From assembly GCA_039208735.1 (NCBI GenBank), contig JBCCQY010000145.1, positions 1 through 23,763 of the forward strand: a stretch of 23,763 nucleotides of DNA. The letters are read 5' to 3'. The position numbers and the translations under genes were made by a program. The notes beneath the pieces are model-generated. The model worked only from the letters and a program-made list of their open reading frames with translations, was not told the origin of the DNA and ran no database searches. Shown here piece after piece: positions 3,806-22,532 of the stretch (position 1 is its first letter; each line of letters begins with the position of its first letter). This DNA is from Myxococcota bacterium (GTDB lineage Bacteria; Myxococcota_A; UBA796; GCA-2862545).

Positions 3806-5689
3806 ATGGCTGAAGTCAAGAAAGCGATGATCAGCAGCACCTCGCGGGACCTGCCGGAGCACAGGGACCAAGCCCGTGATGCGTGTTTGAGCCAGGGTGT
3901 GTTCCCGCTGATGATGGAACACCTGCCCGCTACCGATTCCGACGCGATCGCGGTGTCGCTCCGCATGGTCACCGAATCCGATGTTTACCTAGGCATTTTT
4001 GGCCGACGTTACGGCTATGTCCCGCAGGGCCACGCGATCTCCATCACTGAGATGGAGTACGATCGCGCCCTCGAGCTGGGCATTCCTCGGCTCATCTTCA
4101 TCATGGCGAATGAACACGCGCCGATCGATGAGCCCCCCGAAAGCGAAGAGAAAGCACAGAAGCTCGATGCGCTCAAAGCCCGGCTCCGTTCTGAAGCGAT
4201 CGTGAGCCTCTTCAAGTCCCCCGACGATCTGCGGGCCCACCTGCACCACAGCCTCGCCCGCTACAAAGAGAGCCACCCCACCACGGAATACCGGCCAACC
4301 TCGAGCGAGTCGGCGTATTTCTCCCGCCCCATCCAAGAGCAAATGGCGCGCCTCAACAAGGCCATCGACCAGCTCACAAAAGACCAGTTCAAAGTCATCG
4401 ACTTCTTGAGCGGCCACCGCCGGGTCGCGATCACGGGGGGCGCCGGCACGGGCAAAACCCTGGTGGCAACCGAGAAAGCCATCCGCATGGCCCACGCCGG
4501 CATGCGCACCCTAATGATGTGCCACAACCCCCATTTGGCCACGCACATTCGGAACCTCGTGGCCGGCACGCAGGTCGAGGTGGCGCACTTCGCCGAGTGG
4601 GTCGCCAAGCTGGTCGGAAAGCCCTACGGCTTCGACGACTCCTGGTCGCACTTTGCAGAGCCACTCGAAGCGGACCTCGACGAGGCGTTCGACATCCTGA
4701 TGGAAACCGACCGCCGGTACGATGCCATCATCGTCGACGAAGCGCAGGACTTCCGCGACGAATGGTGGCTGGTGGTGGAGGCCGCGCTCGAGAACCCTGA
4801 GCACGACATTCTCTACATCTTCCACGACAACAACCAGGCGCTGCTTCCGCATCGTGCCCGCTATCCGGTGGTGCAATCCCCCATTGTGCTGACCCAGAAT
4901 TGCCGCAACGCTGGCGAGGTTTTCGACGTCGTCACGGCCTTCCACTATCGGCTCCGCCAAACGCCTCCCTCCGAACTCCTGCAACGTGAAGGGATCTACC
5001 GAAAGTGGATCGTGCAGGATGATCGACCCATCCAAGCCGTCCACGAAGCCATACAGACGGCCTCCTCTACCATGGACCCATCGCAACTCGTGGTCCTTAC
5101 GCCAGACGATCTGGGCACGTCCCCGCTGAACGGTCTGGAAGTCCCCATCGAATTCGCATGGCGCTGGCAAGACAAGATCCGGTACTACTTCGACTACCTG
5201 CCCCGCGAATTCAGCAGCCCTCTCCGCCTGCCCCCGTTGAGCGAAGCCCTCACGCCCACCCCAGCCGACGTCCGCGCGGTCGTGAACATCGCGGAACGCA
5301 CGTTGCGAAGCATCCAACGTCAAGCCATGCCGTTCACGGTCCGTCCCAAATGGGTGGTCGATGACCGAGGGCTTCGACTCCGTCCCAGCCACCTGTCCAA
5401 CTACGAACGCCTCCAGTTCTTCGCGACCGAAGATTGGGCGGCCACGCTCCCTGAACCCCCAAAGCTTCGGCTGCTCCCCGCAAGTCTCTACCAGGGCCAC
5501 GAGCACGAGGTTCTCCTCGCCTCGGTGTCGGCCTTCAAGGGACTCGAATCGGACGGAGTGGTCCTTTGTGCGTTGCGCCCCCACAACCAACTTCGAGCCA
5601 ACCTCTACGTCGGCGCCTCGCGAGCCCGCTACCTGCTTCACCTCGTGATCGACCCTCGTTCGAACGCCCAACTGCCTCGCCACGGGTAA
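3806..5689 (+). CDS. DUF4062 domain fused to a superfamily-1 (UvrD/DUF2075-like) helicase/ATPase
   Basis: N-term ISSTSRDLPEHR..ESDVYLGIFGRRYG..SITEMEYDRALELGIPRLIF (DUF4062). Walker A GGAGTGKT, Walker B IIVDEAQD, then DNNQ, LTQNCRN, FKGLESD and YVGASRAR helicase motifs. Confidence 0.85.
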   Translation: MAEVKKAMISSTSRDLPEHRDQARDACLSQGVFPLMMEHLPATDSDAIAVSLRMVTESDVYLGIFGRRYGYVPQGHAISITEMEYDRALELGIPRLIFIMANEHAPIDEPPESEEKAQKLDALKARLRSEAIVSLFKSPDDLRAHLHHSLARYKESHPTTEYRPTSSESAYFSRPIQEQMARLNKAIDQLTKDQFKVIDFLSGHRRVAITGGAGTGKTLVATEKAIRMAHAGMRTLMMCHNPHLATHIRNLVAGTQVEVAHFAEWVAKLVGKPYGFDDSWSHFAEPLEADLDEAFDILMETDRRYDAIIVDEAQDFRDEWWLVVEAALENPEHDILYIFHDNNQALLPHRARYPVVQSPIVLTQNCRNAGEVFDVVTAFHYRLRQTPPSELLQREGIYRKWIVQDDRPIQAVHEAIQTASSTMDPSQLVVLTPDDLGTSPLNGLEVPIEFAWRWQDKIRYYFDYLPREFSSPLRLPPLSEALTPTPADVRAVVNIAERTLRSIQRQAMPFTVRPKWVVDDRGLRLRPSHLSNYERLQFFATEDWAATLPEPPKLRLLPASLYQGHEHEVLLASVSAFKGLESDGVVLCALRPHNQLRANLYVGASRARYLLHLVIDPRSNAQLPRHG

Positions 5690-6815: not shown

Positions 6816-6874
6816 ATGCCCCCCTTCGCGACACAGTCTAGTTCACGATTCAGCTCATCGCGAGGGCGGCCTTG

Positions 6875-6880
6875 TACGTT
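6875..6880 (+). promoter_or_regulatory. -10 box (TACGTT) of the IS110 circle-junction promoter
   Basis: Lies 17 bp from TTGACG (8264-8269) only after end-joining at the CT core. Confidence 0.75.
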
Positions 6881-6883
6881 CAA

Positions 6884-7245
6884 GGCATGGCGAGCGAGGG
6901 CGCGTGGAGGTCCCCTGAGAGGGGAACCGAGACGTTCCCGAGCGAGCCATGCCACCTCAGCTCATCGAGCGGCTGCTGTGGTGTTCCGTGTGCTCTCGGC
7001 AGGAGCCCGAAGGGCGGCCGAGGCCTCGAGCCTGCCAGTTAGATCGCTGGCCCCGTTGAGAGCCTGCGGTAGCCTTTGGGGCCACACGGGCGGTAGCTCG
7101 TCGGCGCCGAGCCATTGGAGGCTGAAAGTAGAGTGAGCCCCGCCCTCATCACCCTGTGGAGGCCGTAGAGAATCAGGTGGCGTAGACCACGCGTTCGCAA
7201 GGCAGGCCTGGGTGTTGGTTCAGGGTCGGGGCCCGTGCGGCACTT
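6884..7245 (+). ncRNA. IS110 bridge RNA (5' hairpin, two target-type loops, one donor-binding loop); ends approximate
   Basis: 5' stem 6884-6891/6946-6953. TBL1 guides 7011-7019 and 7037-7042. Second loop guides 7101-7108 and 7125-7131. DBL guides 7167-7174 and 7197-7201. Each loop has an apical hairpin and closing stems found by manual pairing. Confidence 0.85.
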
Positions 7246-7265
7246 AACGCGAAGGGGGGCCTCGA

Positions 7266-8267
7266 ATGGCACGACGCATGGCCGTGGGTATCGACGTCAG
7301 CAGCAAGCACTTCCACGTGGCCTGCATCGGCCGCGAGGAGATCGAGGTCTTCGAGAACTCCTCGACGGGTCGCAAACAGCTCGTGAAGGCCCTACGTCGC
7401 CATCGGGGTCCGATCGTGGCCGCGCTGGAGTCGACGGGCCCGTATGGCCTCGCGCTGGCCCTGGAGCTGCACAAGGTTCGCCGGATCGAGGTCCGGTACG
7501 TGAACCCAAAGGCGGCGAAGGGCTACGCGAGCCGGGGCCTGGCCCGCGCCAAGACGGACCGCGTGGATGCCCAGGCGCTCTCGCGCATGGCCCAGGAGGC
7601 CTTCGGGGTTCCTTAGGAGCCTCCGTCCGAGCACGCGCTGCAGCTTCGTGCGTGGGCACGGCGCGTCCGAAGCCTGGTCAACGACCGCACGCGCGAAAAG
7701 AACCGGCTGGGGTCGACAAAGGCCGCTGCGGTGCTGCCCGCCGCGCTCATCGAGGACATCGAGGACAACATCGCCGCGCTGGGCGCCCGCATTGACAGGC
7801 TTCGTCAGCGGATGGTTGTGTTCGCTCGACAAGACGCCGACCTTAGCGCGCAGATCGACCTGCTTTGCAGCGTGCCGGGGATCGGGGAAGCGATCGCGGT
7901 GGAGGTGTTGTCGGAGCTCGGGTGGATGCCCAGGGATCTGACGGCCCGACAGCTCGTGGCCCAGGCCGGGCTCGACCCGCGTCCGAAACAGTCCGGGCAG
8001 CGGGACGCCCCGCGGCACATCAGCAAGTTGGGCTCGAAGTACCTGCGCGGCATTCTCCACATGGCGGCGCTGACGTCGGTGCAGCACTGCTCGGAGGTCG
8101 AGGCGTTCCACCGCGTGCTGACAGAGCAGCGTCACAAGAAGCCACTCGTGGCCTATGTTGCCGTCTCTCGCAAGTTGCTTCACACGATCCACGGCATGCT
8201 GAAGACCCGGACCGCGTTTGACCCGTCTCGGTTCTACCAGCCCAAGAAAGTGCCCCGTGTAGCTTGA
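7266..8267 (+). pseudogene. IS110 family recombinase/transposase (333 codons) interrupted by one in-frame TAG at 7614-7616
   Basis: ORFs 7266..7616 and 7731..8267 share a frame. GIDVS, LESTG and KTDRVDA (DEDD RuvC), coiled coil, then VPGIG, AGLDP..QSG and ISKLGSKYLR (Tnp domain with catalytic Ser). Confidence 0.92.
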
Positions 8268-8269
8268 CG
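8264..8269 (+). promoter_or_regulatory. Outward-facing -35 box (TTGACG) at the IS110 right end
   Basis: Overlaps the recombinase stop codon, 15 bp before the end of the CT core. Confidence 0.75.
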
Positions 8270-8282
8270 GCCAACAGAGAAT

Positions 8283-9737
8283 CTATCTCATCGACCGTCG
8301 CCGCAGGGCCCACGGCAACAACCACGCCAACCACGCGCTCGCGCCCCAGCCCGAAGTCTGGCAGCCGGTCGACACCGGGGCGGGCTCCGTGGGGGCCTTC
8401 GGCTCGGCGGGCGGGGACGGTTCGGGCTCGGCCATCCCCGGGATGGGGTCTTTCAACAAACTTGCCAACGAGGGCGCTGCCTTGGCGGGACCCGACGACA
8501 ACGATGACCCAGCCGAGGTCACCTCACTCCCGGGGCGGCCTCCCCACTCTCCCCGCCGCGGCGAACTGCATTCGATGGGCCCTTCCCAAGGATGCAAAAT
8601 CGCGTAACGACCCTGGAAGGTGTTGGTAGGGGCCGGTTGAACGCCCTGTTCGGCAAACGTCCCATCCGGTCGCGGCGTTCCTTGGCCCCCACGCACCGCA
8701 GGGGCCGCCTTGAACACGAGGTCAGCATCGAGCCCGTCGGCTTCGTAGCGATAGTGCAGCCGCGTCAGCACGAACGGGCCTTGAGTTTCGAGCACGTCTC
8801 CGCCCAAGGTCAGCAATTCAGCTGGTTTCAACGCGGGCTGCGGGCACGGGTCGCACCACGAAGCATCCCACGCATACTCGGTCACCACGGTGCGCGGCTT
8901 CGCAACCTGGGTGAATAGGGCTTCGTAAAAACCGCCAAACTGATCCTTCACCTCTTTGCTGACCCGAAGATTGGTGGGAATGAAGGCGTTGTCGTAGTTT
9001 GCGACCTCATAGCGCTGCCCCGGCGCGAGAATATGAACCAAGAGGTCTTGGGCACCCTTTGCGTTGAGCAGACCCAGGCGAACGGGCAGCGAAAACGTGG
9101 GGCTATCGTAGTGCATGCGAAGCGGAGACAACACGGCTCGGCCATCGCGGAACGTGACGCGTTCGGGGTCGACTTTGGCCACAAAGAACTTGGTGCCGGC
9201 CGCCACGTACGGCTCGAGAACCTCGGCCGCTCCCTTCGGAATATTGTACTTCTTCTTGCGCAACCAGGTATCAAGCCCTGAAGAATCCGAGGCACTCAAG
9301 ACGACGATGTCGTACTCGCCGACTTGAAACTCGGCTTCGACTTTGACGCCGTTCTTGTTCCGAGCTCCGAGACCGCCAAGGGCGCCCCCCTCCGCGGCCA
9401 CCATGTCGAGCTCTTCCTCGTAGAGGGGCTCACACGGATCGCCTTCCCAGTAGGCCACGAGGCGGGGCGACGCCAATGAGTCGACCCGCTCGAAAATGCC
9501 CTTCGGCAGTGTCTTGACGTTGCTCTTTTTGAGCACTTCAGGCACCGGCACGACCATCGCAAACGCTTCGGGAGGCCCTTGGTAGCTATTCTGCATGGAC
9601 AGGACGGTTCGGGTGCCCATCCGCATGAGAACCACCATCGTGGCGTCATTGTAGAGCGATGCATCTGCACCACTGACGTAGAACCCGCAAAACGCCTCGG
9701 CCCGAGGCATCAAGAGTGACAACAACAAAGGAATCAT
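8283..9737 (-). CDS. DUF2330 domain secreted protein with MYXO-CTERM-like tail
   Basis: GGAGG RBS before ATG 9737. Signal peptide then AFCGFYV, FAMVVPVP, VGEYDIVVLSA, VTEYAWD..CDPC, LTRLH. C-term GC..hydrophobic..RRR. Confidence 0.88.
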   Translation of the reverse strand: MIPLLLSLLMPRAEAFCGFYVSGADASLYNDATMVVLMRMGTRTVLSMQNSYQGPPEAFAMVVPVPEVLKKSNVKTLPKGIFERVDSLASPRLVAYWEGDPCEPLYEEELDMVAAEGGALGGLGARNKNGVKVEAEFQVGEYDIVVLSASDSSGLDTWLRKKKYNIPKGAAEVLEPYVAAGTKFFVAKVDPERVTFRDGRAVLSPLRMHYDSPTFSLPVRLGLLNAKGAQDLLVHILAPGQRYEVANYDNAFIPTNLRVSKEVKDQFGGFYEALFTQVAKPRTVVTEYAWDASWCDPCPQPALKPAELLTLGGDVLETQGPFVLTRLHYRYEADGLDADLVFKAAPAVRGGQGTPRPDGTFAEQGVQPAPTNTFQGRYAILHPWEGPIECSSPRRGEWGGRPGSEVTSAGSSLSSGPAKAAPSLASLLKDPIPGMAEPEPSPPAEPKAPTEPAPVSTGCQTSGWGASAWLAWLLPWALRRRSMR

Positions 9738-9842
9738 GGTGGCCTCCGAGGCTGACAAACTCTACCCTACAGGCAACGAGGCGGTCGAATTTTGCCCGCA
9801 TGAAAGAATGTTCAGTTCCACGTTTACAGTTAGACGTCTGGG

Positions 9843-9984
9843 GCGGGGCTTCCGAGCCCTCGGTCATTGACCCACTGCGGGGCTACCCCGTGGTGTTTCT
9901 TCCAAGCCACAACCACCTGCGCTCGCCACGCCCTGCGTTCCCGCAGTGTTGGGCGCGCCGGGCCGGAAACGTCGGAGGCCCCGC
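9843..9984 (+). ncRNA. Putative retron msr-msd ncRNA
   Basis: 13-bp inverted repeat GCGGGGCTTCCGA (9843-9855)/TCGGAGGCCCCGC (9972-9984, one G-U). Unpaired G9856 in AGC context. Internal hairpins. Lies at the 5' end of a retron-type RT. Confidence 0.6.
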
Positions 9985-11095
9985 ATCCGCCTTCCTCACG
10001 AAGAACTCAAGCCCGACCGGCACCGCCTGGTCCACGCCATTGCATTGGCACTCCTTGCTGGCGAATGGTCCGCCGATGCCATGTCGAACCGTGTGCATGA
10101 GGTTGTCGTTCCTCCGCTCCCGTGGCTCCCCAACCTGATTCGCAAGCTCCTTCGTGCCTACCCCGAACGCCGGGGACTTACGCCAGGGCGGCTCCACGGC
10201 TGGCTACAGCGCAACCGCGAATTTCGCCTTGCGTGGCGGAAAGGCCTCGCCACGCAACGACCTCAACAACGATTCGTTGTGCCGCCGGAACCCAAGCCCG
10301 CGACGCTGCCGCTGCGCGCCGCCGTGCCCGCCCTTCACACGCCGGGCGATGTCGCTGCCTGGCTCGACCTCTCCCCGTCACGACTCGACGGGTTGGCCGA
10401 TCTTCGCGGGTGGCACCGAAACGCAGGCTCACCCCTGCAACATTACCGTCGATGGTGGGTCCCCTCAAGACGTCCGGAAGGACTGCCTCGGCTCCTCGAG
10501 GCCCCCAAGGACCAACTCCGCAGGGTTCAACGTCGTCTCCTCCGCCAGATCCTCGTACTCGTGCCTTGTCATGCCGCGGCCCACGGCTTTATCGAAGGGC
10601 GGTCGGTGTGGACGGCAGCCCAGCCCCACGCCGGTGAGGCGCGGTTGATCCGACTCGATCTGCGCACCTTCTTCCCTTCGATTCATCGAAGACGCGTCGT
10701 TGGCGTCTTTACTTCAATGGGCTTTCCCCGCGAGGTCGCATTCCTGTTCGGTTCGCTCTGCACAACCCGAACGCCCTCATCCGATCTCGACGCCTCGGCT
10801 CCACATCTGAAGGGCCTCTATCGCGACCCCCACCTGCCCCAAGGCGCCCCCACCTCGCCGTGGCTCGCCAACCTCTGTCGTGAACCAAGCTCCATCGGTC
10901 GGGCGACGCGAACGCGACCGTCTCAAAGCCATCCTTACAAACTGCCTGCGAACGGGGCCCGCGACCCAAAACCGCCACAACCATCCGAATTGGCGGGCGC
11001 ATTTGCAAAGCCGAGTGGCGTGGGTCAACCACGTGCACCCCGGTCACGGAGCCAAACTTCAGGCATTGTTCAACCAAATCGAATGGACGCCGTGA
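9946..11095 (+). pseudogene. Retron-type reverse transcriptase with an internal deletion (YADD to VTG region) and frameshift near 10877; start uncertain
   Basis: HYR..RLLEAPK, HAAAHGF..GRS, AQPH (region X-like), DLRTFFPSI, LPQGAPTSPWLANLC, then a jump to another frame VVNQAPSV..LKAILTNC..QNR..IEW (10877-11095). No YADD in either frame. Confidence 0.85.
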
Positions 11096-11992
11096 TTACG
11101 GCTGTTTGCGGGTGACGAGTTCTGTACCCAGCGCGGACGCCACAAAATGCTCCTTTCGATCCGAGCAAAGCGTCTGAAGCCAATCGAAGTAGCCGCCATC
11201 CGAGATGGGCAGGGTTTCCTCACCGAACCGCATCCACACCCGGTAGCGAATTCCCGAGTAGTACGCTTGTTCGAGCGGCAGCCGGTCGATTTGTGGAAAC
11301 GTACCCTTGAACTGGTCATGCAGGGCGTTGGCCACCGCTTGGAAAGGCGGCGTGTTGAACAACTCGAGGCGCACTGCGGCCGCGTCTCGGTCTTGGGCCA
11401 AGCGAACATGCAGGTCGCGTTGCAAGGTCAGATGCCGGGTGAACGTTTTAAGCGCGAACCGTCGCGCATCCTTGTCGCGCCCCGCCGTGACCGCGGCAAA
11501 CATCGAAAAGTGACGAGTATGAGCCTCGCTCTTGAGCGGCTGACATCGAACCAGACGTCCGACCGTGCACAGATCGAGAATACCCGTTTGGCCGGCCCGT
11601 CGACGACGCGCACACTCAAGCGCCAGCACGTTCGTCGGATCGGCAAGGACCTCGAGGTTGCGGGCGGCACTGAACACCCGATTCTGGCCTCCCAACGAAA
11701 AGGTACTGCACGAGCCCAAGGGGGCCAGCGGCGACAACTCGATCGCTTCAAACGCCTCGGCGACATCGAGGCTGGCCAACTCGGCGCGTCGTAGCGCCCT
11801 CGCATCGACAGGGGCAGGCTGTACGTAGCCGTCGCGCAGGAACGCCCGTAGCACCTCGGCGGGGGTTCGACCTGCCGCGCGCTCTTTCGCAACTTCGAGC
11901 CACAGCGCGGTGAGCTCGGCGGTGGGTTGGCCAACGAGATGCCCAACCAGGCCTTCGTAGCCTTCGACCAGCCGCCGTAGCAACGGATTCAT
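11096..11992 (-). CDS. Hypothetical protein with class II aminoacyl-tRNA-synthetase-like motifs
   Basis: 298-aa ORF, ATGA-coupled to the upstream gene. ELSPLAPLG, ADPTNVLALE, RLVRCQ..HF, YYSG, DGGYFDW, SALGTE. Confidence 0.7.
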   Translation of the reverse strand: MNPLLRRLVEGYEGLVGHLVGQPTAELTALWLEVAKERAAGRTPAEVLRAFLRDGYVQPAPVDARALRRAELASLDVAEAFEAIELSPLAPLGSCSTFSLGGQNRVFSAARNLEVLADPTNVLALECARRRRAGQTGILDLCTVGRLVRCQPLKSEAHTRHFSMFAAVTAGRDKDARRFALKTFTRHLTLQRDLHVRLAQDRDAAAVRLELFNTPPFQAVANALHDQFKGTFPQIDRLPLEQAYYSGIRYRVWMRFGEETLPISDGGYFDWLQTLCSDRKEHFVASALGTELVTRKQP

Positions 11993-22028: not shown

Positions 22029-22532
22029 CTACGGGTCGCCGAAGGGGTCCTTCAGATCGGACTTACGAACCCCCAGCGCCTCGGGTGCGGGGACCGAAGG
22101 CGAAGCAGTGGGGCGGGAAGGGGGAGGTGACGGAGGAGCATCGACCTTTGGACTCACCGGGGAAGCGTCCTCGACCGAGGCGCGTCCAGGGTCGATGGCA
22201 GCTGGCGGAGGCGGGGGAGCGACGAGACCTTTGGCAGGTCGCCCCTCTTCGGTTGGGTGTGCGGCCTCTCCGTCAGTCGGGAAGCCGAACGTTCGGACCA
22301 TCCAAAACGCCGCTGCGGCCCCGATGAGGATCAAGGGAAGTCCGACCATGGCGACCGCGGGGAAAATCGAGGCACGCCGTGGTTGTTCGGGCCCTTCCTC
22401 CGCCACGAGCTTTGCGCCGTCGGCGAGACACACCGTGTAGGAGGAGTCGTAGGTCGCACCGCACCGGGGGCACCGTACGACATCACCGATGAGATTGAGT
22501 CTGGGTGGCTTGTGTGCGGGTTCTCGTGCCAT
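22029..22532 (-). CDS. Single-pass membrane protein with N-terminal Zn-ribbon-like motif and Pro-rich tail
   Basis: CPRCGATY..C.ADG, one TM segment, Pro-rich tail ending DLKDPF. Confidence 0.7.
   Translation of the reverse strand: MAREPAHKPPRLNLIGDVVRCPRCGATYDSSYTVCLADGAKLVAEEGPEQPRRASIFPAVAMVGLPLILIGAAAAFWMVRTFGFPTDGEAAHPTEEGRPAKGLVAPPPPPAAIDPGRASVEDASPVSPKVDAPPSPPPSRPTASPSVPAPEALGVRKSDLKDPFGDP

Follow-up and report, generated by a model that had tools for sequence, protein, structure and literature searches.

An IS110-group insertion sequence predicted to encode a bridge RNA with two target-binding loops, of which the added loop appears to direct most insertions

Introduction

The recombination complex of the insertion sequence IS621 consists of one recombinase dimer bound to the target-binding loop (TBL) of a bridge RNA and another dimer bound to the donor loop, and handshake base pairs drive strand exchange (PMC11208158, PMC13626964). 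Since the linker between the two loops is short, one complex takes its TBL from one RNA molecule and its donor loop from another (PMC11208158). Genome editing with bridge RNAs is still a young technology; in the literature covered, the characterised molecules have one target loop.

Here we describe a predicted bridge RNA that departs from the canonical rule of exactly one TBL and one donor loop, as it carries two TBL modules. No description of two TBLs in one natural bridge RNA was found in the literature covered, which included PMC11208160, PMC13604230, PMC11187229, PMC12288879 and 10.64898/2026.08.14.744561; the sole mention of two TBLs in that literature concerned two dimers, not two loops per RNA (PMC13626964). 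The 86 bridge-RNA models in 10.64898/2026.10.21.760802, many of which are said to deviate from IS621, could include a two-TBL layout. Comparison with relatives indicates that this layout is a real and conserved variant of the IS110 bridge RNA, which is apparently new. A lineage that has carried two loops since its proteins diverged to ~31% identity would be a ready scaffold for multiplexed or single-RNA designs, and makes it testable how a guide is retargeted without loss of mobility and whether one RNA serves both recombinase dimers.

The element, its ends and its recombinase

The window, by which we mean the whole 23,763-nt stretch of DNA analysed, carries an IS110-group insertion sequence at 6871-8284, the host element of the loops (features lie on the plus strand unless stated otherwise). 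Related elements used for comparison include an intact paralogue on contig C143 of the same genome (G000; 69% identity) and an intact element present in three copies at three loci of G013, a genome of the same family (50% identity). The ends of the window element are laid out as in the IS110 group, with a left end of 393 nt, a right end of ~15 nt, CT at both junctions and no long terminal inverted repeats. The left CT core (6871-6872) was read from the sequence and by comparison with an empty site, and the left target half outside the element (LT; 6864-6870) is identical to the left guide of loop 1 at 7012-7018. The short right end (8264-8284) comprises a -35 box (8264-8269), the left-donor sequence (8276-8282) and the right CT core (8283-8284), which is adjoined by the right target half (RT; 8285-8290). 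Across the joined ends of a circle, the -35 box would be separated by a 17-nt spacer from a -10 box at 6875-6880, constituting a junction promoter predicted from sequence only; boxes 17 nt apart occur likewise in C143 and G013. The right core and position 8285 supply the stop codon of a DUF2330 gene (8283-9758, minus strand), so that gene was left whole by the insertion.

The ends were confirmed by an empty site, as on a contig assembled from a different sample of the same study 6867 is followed, after three other letters, by 8283 (depth 2.5). In the sequencing run X2, we also detected a second insertion that has 6862-6872 in common with the window and a different upstream flank, which was not found in G000. 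The empty allele in X2 and the filled allele differ at two adjacent LT letters, 6868-6869 (depth 2.5): the filled allele matches the loop-1 guide exactly there, and the empty allele can be paired only by wobble. This difference may reflect a strain difference, an assembly error or allele-specific targeting.

The recombinase gene (7266-8267) encodes DEDD and Transposase_20 domains, PF01548 and PF02371 both scoring over the cut-off. Its frame is broken by TAG at codon 117 (7614-7616), a position invariantly occupied by W in 26 homologues, and a contig from the run X1 covering 6947-8234 showed no letter differences from the window. The catalytic residues D10, E55, D98, D101 and S243, which are invariant in the 26 homologues, are all kept in the window copy. 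We regard this copy as broken; it could move only with help in trans, for instance from C143. The sequencing runs in which DNA of the element occurs are marine metagenomes, and no RNA run was among those listed. Some copies, L015/L209 (G013) and L076, have themselves received other insertions, which lie in the left end and the recombinase gene. The C143 element is situated within a repeat (G000, C143 about 22350-22440), and C36 carries an empty, similar copy of this repeat at about 68460.

Elsewhere in the window, a gene at 9946-11115 (plus strand) encodes a reverse transcriptase of 389 aa, for which PADLOC gave RT_other (E 1.8e-79) and retron RT_outgroup (E 1e-75) as the best matches. A gene at 3806-5689 (plus strand) encodes DUF4062 and a UvrD-like helicase with a PADLOC match to RTasNERD-Hel (E 1e-32), and is possibly linked to defence. 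There is a 13-nt perfect inverted match between 6818-6830 and 7248-7260, the leaders of the divergent esterase and recombinase genes, which likely reflects likeness of ribosome-binding sites, and an 11-nt identity between the left flank (6850-6860) and a left-end stretch that directly follows the 5' hairpin (6957-6967), which was not seen in relatives. Both look-alikes were judged incidental.

Anatomy of the predicted RNA

The RNA is predicted to start near 6885, upstream of 6971, where the feature proposed in a first-pass annotation of this DNA began. All coordinates in that annotation check against the sequence, and its central observation, two target-type loops plus one donor loop in a single IS110 end, is confirmed by the covariance model, the relatives and the loop-2 stem described below. 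A 5' hairpin was predicted by folding at 6884-6954, and similar hairpins were found in C143, G013 and L076.

Target loop 1 (6992-7063), the distal and dominant one, was identified by the covariance model, junction scoring and sequence reading. It consists of a left guide (7012-7018), the core C (7019), an inner stem (7021-7033), a right guide (7035-7040), the core AG (7041-7042) and the handshake AT (7043-7044), and its outer stems bear compensatory changes relative to C143, as read from the sequences. A copy of the 9-mer 6863-6871 occurs once within the 393-nt left end, at 7011, against 0.012 occurrences expected by composition. The right guide had been claimed to pair with the core plus right flank at five of six positions; this count holds, albeit only three of the six right-target positions are matched.

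Target loop 2 (7096-7138), recognised by the covariance model and stem covariation, has the same parts, namely an outer stem (7096-7099/7135-7138), a left guide (7101-7107), the core C (7108), an inner stem (7110-7123; strands 7110-7113/7120-7123), a right guide (7125-7129), the core AG (7130-7131) and the handshake AG (7132-7133). The third pair of its inner stem is switched relative to the loop-1 stem (7021-7024/7030-7033).

A stem predicted by folding (7138-7146/7222-7231, spanning 7138-7231) encloses the donor-binding loop (7160-7209), and its 5' strand (7138-7146) served as the anchor motif of the family survey. The donor loop contains a left guide (7167-7173), a stem (7177-7190), a right guide extending to 7201 and the handshake GC (7202-7203). 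As expected of a donor loop, its guides match the joined ends: the left guide plus C (7167-7174) equals 8276-8283, an 8-mer that recurs once in the left end, at 7167 (0.002 expected), and the right guide pairs with 6871-6875, one of these pairs being G-T.

Covariance model and folding

The covariance model was trained on 30 single-TBL relatives only, to avoid circularity; in this training set the stems were 97.5% paired, with 41 double changes. Among the 43 model matches in the 23.8-kb window, the best was loop 1, with 19.1 bits and E 0.014, and the fourth was loop 2, whose score of 12.2 bits (E 0.46) is weak when taken alone; these two were the only ones of the five best matches to align over the full model. 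Both loops were also recovered by the same model in L184 (29.4 and 28.1 bits) and G092 (21.5 and 18.0 bits), while many loops of relatives score weakly with this single-TBL-trained model. An Rfam search gave no match with an E of 5 or lower.

Relative to shuffled sequences, the complete left end shows only a modest gain in folding (z -2.2 and -1.2), and unconstrained folding does not open the loops, the open form being at -151.3 vs -175.7 kcal/mol, a cost of ~24 kcal/mol. The open form is costly, and the loop-1 guide is hidden in the minimum free energy (MFE) fold, because loop 1 and the sequence immediately 3' of it can base-pair; the protein would thus have to select the open form. In the MFE fold, at 7005-7081, the stretch just 3' of loop 1 pairs with the left guide and stem of this loop. 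This competing fold is a possible off-switch, for which no clear counterpart was found in C143.

Distribution and origin of the two-loop layout

The survey drew on at least 160 loci from two collection scans plus genome searches, and the anchor motif was found in at least 73 distinct left ends. Most surveyed left ends carry one TBL, directly before the donor-enclosing stem, and it is this TBL that matches the insertion site. Two loops were read in at least 14 elements and then in two more, G092 and G030, the latter with a degenerate loop 2, giving at least 16 elements at about 31-70% protein identity. In these elements, loop 2 occupies the position of the single TBL of the relatives, and loop 1 lies upstream. 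On this comparison, the ancestral place is that of loop 2, and loop 1 is the addition. The first-pass annotation had taken loop 2 for a duplicated and reprogrammed loop; the direction is reversed. The left ends of two-loop members are also longer, ~335-416 nt vs mostly ~190-300 nt in single-TBL sisters.

In a quick IQ-TREE phylogeny of 77 proteins with a midpoint root (L157, L177, L169 and L026 were left out), all 12 labelled two-loop rows fell on one side of one branch (SH-aLRT 95), and none of 500 shuffles scored as low. On the same side are L010, in which two loops were seen on later reading, L020, which is without a left end, and L006 and L008. L012 has two loops, yet it lies outside the two-loop branch, on a branch of length 1.95. 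A single old origin of the layout is therefore likely, albeit not proven by these sequences. The left ends of L006 (G038) and L008 (G063), inside the two-loop branch, are rearranged or not parsable as two clean loops; the three copies of L008 have one site class in common, and a distal guide fits the right half of this class.

Other searches added little to this distribution. A loop-2 scaffold pattern searched across 401 genomes returned the two known copies plus two matches at control level, and a single-protein locus search of genome contigs yielded nothing that was confirmed. A donor-loop pattern hit eight stretches in viral contigs, none with a recombinase, and we attribute these to chance.

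Insertion sites follow loop 1

We scored the guides against 22 left and 21 right junctions from 14 elements, multi-copy members having supplied junctions. L006 and L008 (not parsed), L020 and L007 (without a left end) and variant B of G119 (loop 2 not assembled) were excluded from the junction counts. Loop 1 matched 80% of positions vs 42% under permutation, and loop 2 matched 51% vs 36% (p ~0.0001), across the 43 junctions; the guides were assigned purely by hand while the flanks were in sight, which may have inflated the match rates, that of loop 1 most, and kin have hosts and repeats in common, so that permutation p-values are overstated and the direction is firmer than the p-values. Loop 1 gave the better fit in 12 of the 14 elements, L184 and L060 were ties (L184 alone when wobble pairs are allowed), and loop 2 was better in none. 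From the 12 of 12 decidable elements favouring loop 1, the use of loop 2 is bounded below ~22% (95% bound by hand arithmetic, with elements treated as independent).

Individual elements point the same way. In the window element, loop 1 fits 7/7 positions of each of the two filled left junctions and loop 2 fits 3/7, and over the whole site loop 2 matches only 5/13 positions. Multi-copy members show one site class each (G013, 3/3; G006, five left and five right; G042, 3/3 right flanks). G119 contains two variants, whose left ends are 93-95% identical over their first part and which differ in the loop-1 right guide, and its genome has two right-flank classes matching these two guides; the pairing of variant with flank is our inference, since the ends lie on separate contigs. 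Loop 1 thus behaves as the target loop of a bridge RNA should, its guides matching the site (permutation) and changing with it (G119 variants). G030, which was held out of the scoring, fits loop 1 as well. At a G119 left junction (L301 1501-1516), AA stands in place of the CT core.

Some junctions lean the other way. The left junctions of L290 and L016 prefer loop 2 by one base, yet the right flank of L016 favours loop 1, 5 vs 1. The single flank of G092, a right one, fits loop 2 at 5/5 and loop 1 at 5/6 plus a wobble; further G092 junctions were searched for and not found. Among all the insertions considered, none clearly depends on loop 2.

Target abundance in the host genomes was assessed separately. 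In G013, the loop-1 target is a host repeat (222 matches vs 25 in the control), and the loop-2 target has no exact match in that genome. Neither of the two targets of the window element is enriched in G000 relative to a fifth-order Markov expectation, nor is the loop-2 target of C143 in the same genome. The loop-2 target of G092 is modestly enriched (15 vs 5), and the loop-1 motif of G092 at one mismatch is not above control (414 vs 426), although the first 100 matches listed are all exact, many of them in inverted pairs.

The single-TBL relatives L025, L199, L205 and L036 insert at the start of hairpin-like repeats. The repeats at these right flanks look like integron attC sites, and the window loop-1 target resembles their motif.

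What loop 2 does

Loop 2 has a conserved scaffold, as the model matches and the covarying stem show, with guides that differ between relatives. Pairing in the loop-2 inner stem reaches 89% across 14 elements, with 11 double changes, a result not attained in 500 shuffles, and the core-pairing G is nearly invariant in the alignment; with the stem covarying and the guides varying, loop 2 is neither fully paired nor invariant. Its guides also track the site of their own element within groups of like targets (p 0.035 in repeat-targeting members, 0.012 in the others), which could come from selection, shared ancestry or gene conversion. In L184, an identical right guide is present in both loops inside different hairpins, and in G092 the right guide is nearly identical in both. 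On the other hand, the handshake AT, the complement of donor positions 6-7, is found in loop 1 of 10/14 elements vs loop 2 of 0/14, albeit the first base A is kept in loop 2 of 10/14; among single-TBL loops, 20/30 have AT and 7/30 have AG. Loop 2 looks degenerate in L076, L011 and L012, besides G030, and several members have lost or distorted the core pairing of this loop.

We consider it the best reading, and a somewhat probable one, that loop 1 is an added, dominant guide and loop 2 a subordinate guide of ancestral position. The narrower claim that loop 2 is a live second guide, responsible for a minority of insertions at a variant repeat or an unrelated site while loop 1 takes most, we hold with a confidence a little short of even. 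Were it live, the element would provide a natural multiplexed guide of an RNA-guided recombinase and a route of guide retargeting in evolution, with a spare loop exploring new targets without risk to mobility and a longer linker perhaps letting one RNA feed both dimers.

The strongest rival is that loop 2 no longer guides and is a protein-docking or structural module, which folds the donor domain or soaks up dimers while its guide letters drift. The absence of any element preferring loop 2, its lack of an AT handshake, the damaged core pairing and the targets of the window, C143 and G013 that are unenriched or without exact matches in their own genomes all suit this reading, and in IS621 two TBL-bound dimers form no productive complex (PMC13626964). 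Nevertheless, inert guides should not match their own sites above the permuted null, within target groups too, nor would they be expected to share right guides with loop 1 as in L184 and nearly so in G092, where the loop-2 target is modestly enriched; the AG handshake is moreover employed by seven of the 30 single-TBL elements. We judge an inert loop 2 rather unlikely. If it were so, the interest would fall to that of a variant of RNA architecture.

The first-pass annotation had proposed a natural multiplexed guide with two target specificities in comparable use. The TBL anatomy of both loops speaks for it, and so do the one-base preferences of the L290 and L016 left junctions, the G092 right flank and the donor handshake, which in the window and C143 is compatible with the two final LT letters that each loop predicts under the rule given in PMC11208158. 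Two site classes of comparable weight, one per loop, were nevertheless not what the flanks gave: with loop 1 better in 12 elements, two ties and none for loop 2, insertions largely match loop 1, close to the outcome (loop 1 only) that its proponent had named as speaking against it. All the decidable elements, the single site classes of G013, G006 and G042 and the right flank of L016 make equal use improbable.

A division of labour by reaction step is more doubtful still. One RNA could give rise to a stand-alone TBL along with a full bridge RNA, or loop 2 could serve excision. CazIS110-1 does have a direct-transfer route in which a TBL-only RNA cooperates with the bridge RNA (10.1101/2025.10.25.684509), and handshakes that favour insertion disfavour excision (PMC13626964), the handshakes of our two loops differing systematically. 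For such a division, however, loop 2 would have to read the occupied site, of which it matches few positions in the window (5/13, as above), its handshakes fail to complement positions 6-7 of LT in all three of the window element, C143 and G013, and excision can run on the donor loop alone (10.64898/2026.08.31.748434, PMC13626964). A role for loop 2 as a reader of hybrid junctions was also considered and found no match by eye.

Finally, a recent decaying duplication or chance folding in GC-rich DNA, to which the weak model score of loop 2 alone (E 0.46), the modest folding z-scores of the left end and the pseudogene state of the window copy might lend colour, is largely refuted and hardly credible, given that intact relatives with as little as ~31% protein identity have the layout too and lie on one branch, and that the loop-2 stem covaries.

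Returning to a dominant loop 1 and a subordinate loop 2, we propose the following scheme. The sequence comparisons establish the layout, its conservation, the ancestral place of loop 2 and the agreement of sites with loop 1; the rest is our model. The circular element would transcribe an RNA of ~350 nt from the junction promoter, each loop of which would bind one recombinase dimer, as in IS621. Loop 1 would have been added once and then taken over targeting, and with the donor loop would now perform nearly all insertions. Loop 2 would still bind a dimer and could guide rarely; it would have been retained both for its place in the donor-loop domain and as a spare guide, in many cases one adapted to a variant of the same host repeat. 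The advantage of loop 1 may lie in its full insertion-promoting handshake and its distance of ~100 nt from the donor loop, and we speculate that such a linker is long enough for one RNA to serve both dimers in cis.

Comparison with known systems

The window element can be compared with IS621 (PMC11208160, PMC11208158, PMC13626964). Both have a DEDD plus Tnp recombinase (match to the IS621 chain, E 1.4e-23), a long left and a short right end, a CT core, a junction promoter (here a predicted one) and a 5' hairpin, and in both the TBL and the donor loop are each composed of a left guide, a hairpin, a right guide and a handshake; repeats are targeted by IS621 and by several members here. In contrast to IS621, two TBLs stand in one RNA, which is predicted to be ~350 nt rather than 177 nt long, and the working TBL lies ~100 nt from the donor loop instead of across a 14-nt linker.

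The chain of ISCro4 was matched as well (E 1.8e-25). In the split bridge RNAs of ISCro4/IS622, the TBL and donor loop are separate working modules (10.1101/2025.05.14.653916), which makes it mechanically plausible for one transcript to carry a second TBL, although those RNAs are engineered and have a single TBL per donor loop. The TBL-only RNA of CazIS110-1 (10.1101/2025.10.25.684509) is alike in that an extra TBL acts beside a full bridge RNA, but the RNA there is a truncated form that shares the guide of the full one, whereas the extra loop here is separately encoded and has a different guide. The single-TBL sisters (for example L023, L025, L053 and L069) have the TBL scaffold, the enclosing stem, the donor loop and the core in common with the two-loop elements, and differ in having a shorter left end with one TBL, at the place of loop 2, which matches the insertion site.
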